The notes under the pieces were generated by a model. It was not told where the DNA came from. It was given only the letters and a program-made list of their open reading frames with translations, and did no database searches. The position numbers were made by a program, and so were the translations under genes. From Escherichia phage CEC_Kaz_2018, in the sequence record NC_073070.1: a stretch of DNA of 44,283 nt, one strand, 5' to 3'. Positions 10,346 through 10,630 of the stretch are shown here, piece by piece. Positions within the stretch are counted from its first letter, which is position 1, and each line of letters begins with the position of its first letter.

Positions 10346-10630
10346 ATGAAAACTTTAATTATGATTTGTGCGGTTCTTTTGTCCGGTTGTGCCGACATGC
10401 CGTCTAAAATCTGCGACGCAACATACATGAATAGTGGTATGGAGTATTCCGTCCCGGTGTTTGGGGTCGCCGACTTTAGCGGACATAAAATGTTACGGGC
10501 GGGATACCCATTCAACTTCCAGTATGTGTCGGTCGACCACTTCAAAAGCACCACCTGCGAATACGCCCCGAAAGGGGCTTTTTATATCCCGTCCACGTTA
10601 ATTGCGGTCAGCGCAACTCCGGTGTTTTGA
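10346..10630 (+). CDS. small lipoprotein (moron; candidate superinfection-exclusion/receptor-blocking protein)
   Basis: MKTLIMICAVLLSGC signal peptide with lipobox LSGC; opposite strand to flanking tail genes; locally AT-richer. Confidence 0.55.
   Translation: MKTLIMICAVLLSGCADMPSKICDATYMNSGMEYSVPVFGVADFSGHKMLRAGYPFNFQYVSVDHFKSTTCEYAPKGAFYIPSTLIAVSATPVF

Follow-up and report, generated by a model that had tools for sequence, protein, structure and literature searches.

Within the tail module of a Dhillonvirus genome, one short open reading frame (ORF) runs against the direction of its neighbors and bears the marks of a small lipoprotein. The locus raises the question of what this protein is, which receptor it might act upon, and how far the copy at hand may be taken at face value. 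The window, i.e. the whole stretch of DNA that was analyzed (44,283 nucleotides of Escherichia phage CEC_Kaz_2018), is collinear with Escherichia phage B2 (MG581355), a virulent Dhillonvirus. B2 is described as lacking lysogeny genes (PMC5945888). All positions given are those of the window, and the features are collected in Table 1.

Table 1. Features of the cor locus and of the adjoining tail genes
Feature	Position	Strand	Basis or remark
Lateral tail fiber, 607 aa, C-terminal Peptidase_S74 chaperone domain; divergent from cor	8442..10265	-	
Position of the cor promoter-like element; -10 degenerate here	10287..10315	+	Consensus-level; 14 Dhillonvirus upstream regions aligned
Position of the Shine-Dalgarno sequence, 8 nt before the ATG; GGAG/GGGG in relatives, GAAG here	10334..10337	+	Alignment
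Lipoprotein signal peptide and lipobox (MKTLIMICAVLLSG, followed by C15)	10346..10390	+	Rule-based reading
Family-conserved Cor coding sequence, 72 codons; mature part with Cys23, RAGYPF, and Cys71	10346..10561	+	Family models, alignments, AF2 core
Codon 73, TAC (Tyr) where the relatives checked have TAA	10562..10564	+	
Intrinsic terminator, GCCCC-GAAA-GGGGC + TTTTT; hairpin shared with the convergent 223-aa gene	10565..10583	+	-11.4 kcal/mol
Rest of the C-terminal extension (with codon 73, 22 residues: YAPKGAFYIPSTLIAVSATPVF) and TGA	10565..10630	+	
223-aa cassette partner, N15 gp23 / T1 orf31 type; putative FhuA receptor-binding locus	10582..11253	-	PHROG 425
100-aa cassette partner, N15 gp22 / T1 orf32 type; 74-75% identity to N15, phi80, and HK75	11256..11558	-	PHROG 557
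Lambda-J-like tail tip protein, 1139 aa; last ~56 codons (11596..11760) are part of the swappable cassette	11596..15015	-	

The open reading frame and its surroundings

The frame encodes 94 aa on the + strand, from an ATG at 10346 to a TGA at 10628-10630. The initial annotation had described an opposite-strand ORF inside the tail module, and this was borne out: the gene (hereafter cor) opposes the - strand tail genes, being divergent from the lateral fiber gene and convergent with the gene for the 223-aa protein, and its family matches go beyond chance. The same annotation had set the ORF between fiber and tail tip genes. The lateral fiber does adjoin it, but on the other side lies the pair of genes for the 223-aa and 100-aa proteins, which is downstream of the J-like tip gene. 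The product had been put at about 95 aa; the ORF does have 94, but the family-conserved protein comprises only 72, and the remainder stems from an allele-specific loss of the stop codon.

The N-terminus of the product (MKTLIMICAVLLSGC) features one Lys, a 10-residue hydrophobic core, and the lipobox L-S-G-C15 with Ala at +2; the signal peptide with lipobox LLSGC that had been claimed was thus seen in a rule-based reading. The Ala at +2 means that the protein is without the Asp inner-membrane retention signal, and accepted sorting rules applied to this N-terminus predict an outer-membrane lipoprotein.

The conserved core of cor has a GC content of 47.0%, compared to 54.5% for the genome, a value at the 5th percentile for stretches of its size. 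At 59.7%, its GC3 is similar to that of the neighboring genes. The AT-richness remarked upon earlier is therefore real but modest, and it arises from amino-acid composition, not from foreign codon usage. A foreign origin of cor on compositional grounds was considered and rejected because GC3 is normal.

Assignment to the Cor family

The protein was matched by the NCBIfam equivalog model NF047972 ('phage exclusion lipoprotein Cor') at 59.7 bits (the curated cutoff is 31 bits), where residues 2-72 align to positions 2-77 of the 78-position profile. A second family model, PHROG 1119 ('Cor superinfection exclusion protein'), was matched by residues 1-72 with an E-value of 5e-28. A Pfam search gave no match for the cor ORF or for its two cassette partners. 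Identity is 52% to Cor of T1 and 42-48% to the Cor proteins of phi80, N15, and HK75. A homology search with the single sequence recovered six close clusters only; the family was reached with an alignment seeded by the Cor proteins of T1, N15, phi80, and HK75, and 266 homologues, many of them called Cor by their sources, were found by profile search. In an alignment of 67 members, the lipobox Cys, C23, C71, A52, G53, and P55 are invariant and Y54 and F56 are nearly so, while the +2 residue is Ala, Ser, or Thr in 67/67; the motif RAGYPF as a whole is invariant in a set of 9 sequences.

Existing records agree with these matches. The entry A0A4P8EX77 in BFVD, 'Super-infection exclusion protein' of CEC_Kaz_2018, is 100% identical over 94 aa, and gp15 of phage bob, annotated as a superinfection exclusion protein, is 98.6% identical over 72 aa and stops at codon 73. 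Close relatives label the homologue Cor or superinfection exclusion protein; in the B2 record, the same ORF is ORF15, a 'hypothetical protein'. The gene is an ordinary, already described, and already annotated member of its family in a canonical locus. We hold with high confidence that the ORF encodes a Cor-family exclusion lipoprotein and constitutes the third gene of an FhuA-type cassette (J C-terminus / 100-aa / 223-aa / cor) in a virulent Dhillonvirus. The earlier proposal of a receptor-blocking exclusion lipoprotein of the Llp/Cor design is supported by the Cor models, by the T1-like convergent layout, and by T5 Llp as the top match in the PDB. The accompanying statement that the sequence itself was not a recognized one did not hold, given its identity to T1 Cor.

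With T1 Cor (orf30, AAP49969), the protein shares the lipobox, the two conserved Cys residues, and RAGYPF. T1 is likewise a virulent phage, it uses FhuA, and its cor is inverted and convergent after the genes for J, a ~100-aa protein, and a ~225-aa protein, with a hairpin terminator in between. Because of this inverted, convergent placement in T1 and in the window, expression independent of the late tail operon is possible. There are two differences: T1 Cor has 75 aa and ends 2 residues after its last Cys, whereas the frame here continues 22 codons further, and recombination genes lie beyond cor in T1 where the window has the lateral tail fiber. The resemblance extends to phi80, N15, and HK75 (HK022-like), in which the partners gp22 and gp23 are found at 50-75% identity. 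These phages, however, are temperate, and their cor is a classical moron, located on the strand of the tail genes and expressed from the prophage; here it is inverted and belongs to a virulent phage.

In 1996, Vostrov reportedly showed by genetics that Cor of phi80, N15, and HK022-like phages excludes FhuA-dependent phages and inactivates FhuA. The preprint bioRxiv 10.64898/2026.03.26.714494 cites Uc-Mass 2004 for genetic exclusion at, and inactivation of, FhuA by Cor. The literature search turned up no experiment on a Cor protein from a Dhillonvirus. Based on these homologues, Cor in the window most likely would exclude FhuA-dependent phages and inactivate FhuA.

The term 'moron', which had been applied to the gene, fits loosely. 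A separate unit from promoter to terminator speaks for it; the terminator is present, the promoter is putative and degenerate, and GC content is lowered with GC3 normal (values above). The phage, however, is virulent (PMC5945888), and for this reason 'lytic conversion gene', in the sense in which it is used for T5 llp, is the better term.

Provenance of the stretch

The window and B2 are equal in length (44,283), and their comparison gave no indels, 90.9% identity, and 70 scattered N. Divergence from B2 is about 10% everywhere except in three perfect runs, at 8442-9520, 10336-11763, and 26401-27554. The first of these is the distal lateral fiber, and the second contains cor, its two partner genes, and the C-terminus of J. 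Because B2 identity is perfect across a receptor cassette that is otherwise swappable, the stretch is probably a reference fill-in: a reference-guided consensus would have been built on B2, and B2 sequence would have been kept wherever the reads failed to map. The identical length, the absence of indels, the N positions, and the confinement of perfect identity to three runs amid about 10% divergence all point this way. So do the boundaries. When B2 is compared with StarDew, whose cassette is of the alternative kind, homology stops at 10394 and is regained at 11760, almost exactly at the limits of the run at 10336-11763. In BASEL, the receptor-binding locus and the distal lateral fiber are the two similarity dips of Dhillonvirus genomes (PMC8594841), and they coincide with two of the three perfect runs. 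Natural module exchange, on the other hand, uses the same junctions, and a cassette acquired very recently from a B2-like phage would give much the same picture. The fill-in, which we consider the probable origin of the run, concerns provenance only; cor would still be a real Cor gene in B2.

Two genes on the + strand were also observed in the - strand head block at 26388-27560 (PHROG 24635, 122 aa, and PHROG 1965, 254 aa). Their location in the third B2-identical run suggests that they represent another variable accessory module.

Expression signals

The 80 nt upstream of cor (10266-10345) harbor 18 differences from B2, several of which fall at positions invariant in 14 relatives. The promoter-like element of the relatives reads TTGCAA-N17-(TGT)AATACT with an extended -10, and that of T1 reads TTGCAA-17-TACAAT, 30 nt before cor. 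At the corresponding position, the window has TTGAAA ... TGTACA; the putative extended -10 is TGTAATACT in most relatives and TGTTGTACA here. A promoter scan of the window returned no + strand promoter upstream of cor. The degraded -10 and Shine-Dalgarno sequences may be consensus artefacts at the edge of an unmapped block.

An inverted repeat (GGTTGAGG / CCTCAACC; 10297-10327) brackets the putative -10 of cor, with a fold energy of -12.9 kcal/mol. The relatives have a 7-bp version of it, in which the changes are compensatory in one case (L008) and non-compensatory in others (B2, L006, and L010); because the two kinds are mixed, a structural or operator role is not claimed.

A promoter-like site on the - strand (CGGACA-16-CATAAT, a 9/12 match to the consensus and nothing further) was noted at 10358-10385, within the signal-peptide codons of cor and directed toward the lateral fiber. 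It is kept in YD-2008.s as CCGACA-16-CATAAT. Such a site might help explain the near-invariance of the signal-peptide stretch (95-98% pairwise nucleotide identity).

Loss of the stop codon

The last 22 codons of the frame exist because codon 73 is TAC and not TAA. Thus extended, the frame passes its own terminator and overlaps the 3' end of the convergent 223-aa gene by 49 nt. All relatives checked have products of 72-73 aa (SECphi18, YD-2008.s, bob, six IMG/VR loci, and six protein clusters with 117 sequences). In the DNA of 9/9 relatives, a TAA is followed directly by GCCCC-N4-GGGGC and a T-run. With 23 residues after C71, the product here is the longest of the 67 aligned members, of which 55 have 1-2 such residues and the next longest 15. 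Members of the family are short proteins (~72-80 aa) that end just past the C-terminal Cys; the departure from that form is due to a single TAA to TAC change. The long tail is peculiar to this allele, perhaps a defect, and does not represent a different architecture. In the AF2 model, the pLDDT is below 50 for residues 74-94, and the tail is predicted to be disordered.

That the cor allele is itself defective, or that the TAC is a sequencing error, is rather unlikely in our judgment. A defect could arise by either of two routes. Transcripts that end at about 10583 would have no in-frame stop and could cause ribosome stalling, tmRNA tagging, and degradation, leaving little Cor; alternatively, translation through the hairpin could weaken termination and send antisense RNA into the 223-aa gene. 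The position of the TAA to TAC change, immediately before the hairpin and T-tract, agrees with this reading, as do the uniform 72-73 aa of the nine other Dhillonvirus copies and the six clusters, the usual end of the protein just past its last Cys, and the predicted disorder of the extension. An exact-protein look-up returned the 94-aa product for B2 alone. Searches for the TAC variant in IMG/VR and in JGI metagenome contigs gave no match, which is a weak negative because the TAA control gave only 2 metagenome contigs. Also weighing against a defect or an error are two natural members with 15-residue C-terminal tails, so that some extension is tolerated, and the core domain, which is intact and 98.6% identical to that of bob. 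Given that the -10 and the Shine-Dalgarno sequence are degraded relative to all 14 relatives and that the stop is lost, the copy in the window may be poorly expressed or unstable.

The receptor cassette and its probable target

The gene order J / ~100 aa / ~225 aa / cor is common to T1, N15, phi80, and HK75, and in the window J and the three cassette proteins are 98% identical to those of bob, which is reported to be FhuA-dependent (PMC10373560). The Cor proteins of JLBYU37, JLBYU60, and Teewinot, phages for which FhuA dependence has been determined experimentally, are 76-85% identical to Cor here. According to BASEL, alleles of the receptor-binding locus predict the terminal receptor (PMC8594841). 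Across the BASEL phages, presence of the cor cassette and use of FhuA go together (PMC13164509, PMC8594841), and the full cassette with gp22-like and gp23-like partners has been reported only in FhuA users (PMC13164509). The target receptor had at first been called unknown; FhuA can nevertheless be inferred from a cassette that shares 98% identity with its counterpart in the FhuA-dependent bob (PMC10373560) and homologous to the cassettes of T1, phi80, N15, and HK75 (PMC13164509). It is a well-supported candidate and likely the target of Cor here.

BASEL treats the locus of the 223-aa and 100-aa genes as a receptor-binding module (PMC8594841). Mass spectrometry of purified B2 virions revealed the 223-aa protein but not ORF15 (PMC5945888); a receptor-binding component of the virion (the 223-aa protein) paired with a non-structural exclusion protein fits these virion data. 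Since ORF16 is a virion protein, there is reason to doubt the names 'membrane associated' and 'outer membrane' that have been given to ORF16 and ORF17.

Some peculiarities of labeling and gene limits in this region should be recorded. The PHROG 425 name 'membrane associated' is probably misleading for the 223-aa protein. The B2 record (MG581355.1) seems to swap two names, as the J-like protein is called 'tail fiber' and the S74 fiber 'tail tip'. For the 100-aa gene, an alternative, longer TTG start exists at 11621, which would overlap the end of J.

The fold by itself is not sufficient to determine the target, since phages that use BtuB can have Cor-like lipoproteins as well. Such proteins are present in BtuB-using T5-like phages and in Tempevirinae (PMC13164509), and the Dhillonvirus PTXU06, reported to be BtuB-dependent, has a distant homologue with 37% identity. 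It is nonetheless very improbable that the protein is a Cor/Llp-fold lipoprotein that blocks another TonB-dependent transporter, such as BtuB, in place of FhuA: the cassette is nearly that of the FhuA-dependent bob, both of the partners reported only with FhuA users are present, and the protein matches Cor at the level of an equivalog model.

Coding status of the frame

Among nine Dhillonvirus copies of cor, dN/dS has a median of ~0.06, and dS reaches 1.3. This ratio, together with the breakage of the antisense frame in relatives, indicates that cor is a real gene under strong purifying selection in virulent phages. The antisense ORF at 10321..10554 was considered as an alternative gene and rejected, as it has no family match and contains stops in relatives. 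That the frame encodes some other small phage lipoprotein (e.g. an outer-membrane spanin subunit), or is an ORF that arose by chance on the strand opposite the tail operon, accords with a small protein that has a lipobox and no Pfam match, but the strong matches to Cor family models, the purifying selection in the cor frame, and the broken antisense frame make it so improbable that it may be set aside. A spanin or lysis role was also rejected on location, since the lysis genes are at 34258-35268, ~24 kb away.

Predicted fold and proposed mechanism

An AF2 model calculated with the 67-sequence alignment has a beta-rich core (residues 21-70) with a pLDDT of 81-85. When it was compared to 350,542 PDB chains using Foldseek, the first match was 8a60_B, T5 Llp bound to FhuA. 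In absolute terms this match is weak (E-value 0.04, probability 0.99, TM-score 0.37 by query and 0.54 by target, rmsd 4.6 Å), and the identity to Llp is ~26% over 62 columns. A search of the family profile against PDB sequences also placed 8a60_B first, with an E-value of 0.0045, covering only residues 1-45, which take in the signal peptide as well as the first Cys and strand. In BFVD, the second and third matches, after the protein itself, were small proteins of phages DT571/2 and slur09, that of slur09 being annotated as a lipoprotein. All of these structural and profile matches, weak as they are, are specific.

Like Cor here, T5 Llp is a small lipoprotein of a virulent siphovirus with a pair of Cys residues, and it is the best match among solved structures. 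It differs in that ordinary family models do not recover it and in that llp adjoins pb5, whereas the neighbors here are gp22-like and gp23-like genes and that of a lambda-J-like tip protein. In T5 Llp, a Cys11-Cys58 bond ties the termini together, and the protein, which resides in the outer membrane, binds FhuA from the periplasm (PMC9586334). In the FhuA-Llp structure, Llp is located on the periplasmic face, the plug has a non-native conformation, and loops 7 and 8 are folded inward over the phage site (PMC9586334). Cor and Llp are said to share their fold and disulfide (bioRxiv 10.64898/2026.03.26.714494, PMC13164509, PMC9586334), and their membership in the same family is claimed in a preprint (bioRxiv 10.64898/2026.03.26.714494). 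The modeled match to Llp suggests that Cor could close its receptor allosterically from the periplasmic side.

We infer each step of the mechanism that follows, the second and third from features read directly in the sequence and the rest from homologues. First, cor would be transcribed on its own, opposite the late tail operon, from a promoter in the 80-nt gap to the GC hairpin and T-tract after the normal stop; conserved sequence and the T1 layout point to this. The precursor would then be exported, lipidated at Cys15, cleaved, and anchored in the inner leaflet of the outer membrane, as lipoprotein sorting rules predict. Its mature domain of ~57 aa would be beta-rich, and its ends would be tied by a Cys23-Cys71 disulfide, which is expected because both Cys residues are invariant and because T5 Llp has the Cys11-Cys58 bond. 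Based on the FhuA-Llp crystal structure and on the genetics of Cor in phi80, N15, and mEp167, Cor would bind the periplasmic face and the plug of FhuA and lock the extracellular loops in a state that phage receptor-binding proteins cannot use. As a result, further FhuA-dependent phages would be excluded, and progeny would be spared from being wasted on the debris of lysed cells. In the allele here, the lost stop would add 22 probably disordered residues, or the product would be made from a stop-less mRNA.

Possible exchange of cassettes

Dhillonviruses of the SO1, EK99P-1, slur05, and StarDew type have in common with cor the 80 nt before the gene and its codons 1-16 (10266-10394). Beyond that point they encode an unrelated lipoprotein of 73 aa (PHROG 4281), and a gene for a 324-aa protein of PHROG 1265 comes next on the same strand. 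The loci with this alternative cassette are numbered L012-L016 and L019 (about 1420-1548 in L012-L016). Between Cor and the PHROG 4281 protein of the SO1/StarDew type, only residues 1-16 are shared and the mature parts are unrelated, which places the recombination junction directly after the lipobox.

A joint reading of these observations is offered tentatively, at somewhat less than even confidence. The promoter, the leader, and the signal peptide up to the lipobox would form a fixed 'socket'. Cassettes would be swapped after codon 16 and within the last ~56 codons of J, and unrelated 'warheads' (Cor for FhuA, the PHROG 4281 protein for another receptor) would thereby be plugged in along with matching receptor-binding proteins. 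In the B2 allele, moreover, loss of the stop may be natural, with an mRNA that terminates ahead of any stop codon.

Significance

Taken alone, the finding matters little, as the literature already describes exclusion lipoproteins of the Cor/Llp type and how they are linked to the receptor-binding loci of small siphoviruses (PMC8594841, PMC9586334, PMC13164509). With it, however, ORF15 of B2 need no longer be labeled 'hypothetical protein', and doubt falls on the labels of ORF16 and ORF17. If the record is a reference-guided consensus, its host-range determinants may be borrowed from B2, and receptor predictions made from it would be unreliable. The prediction of FhuA as the terminal receptor is of relevance for B2 itself, since this phage has been proposed for phage therapy and loss of FhuA would be a cheap route to resistance for the host.
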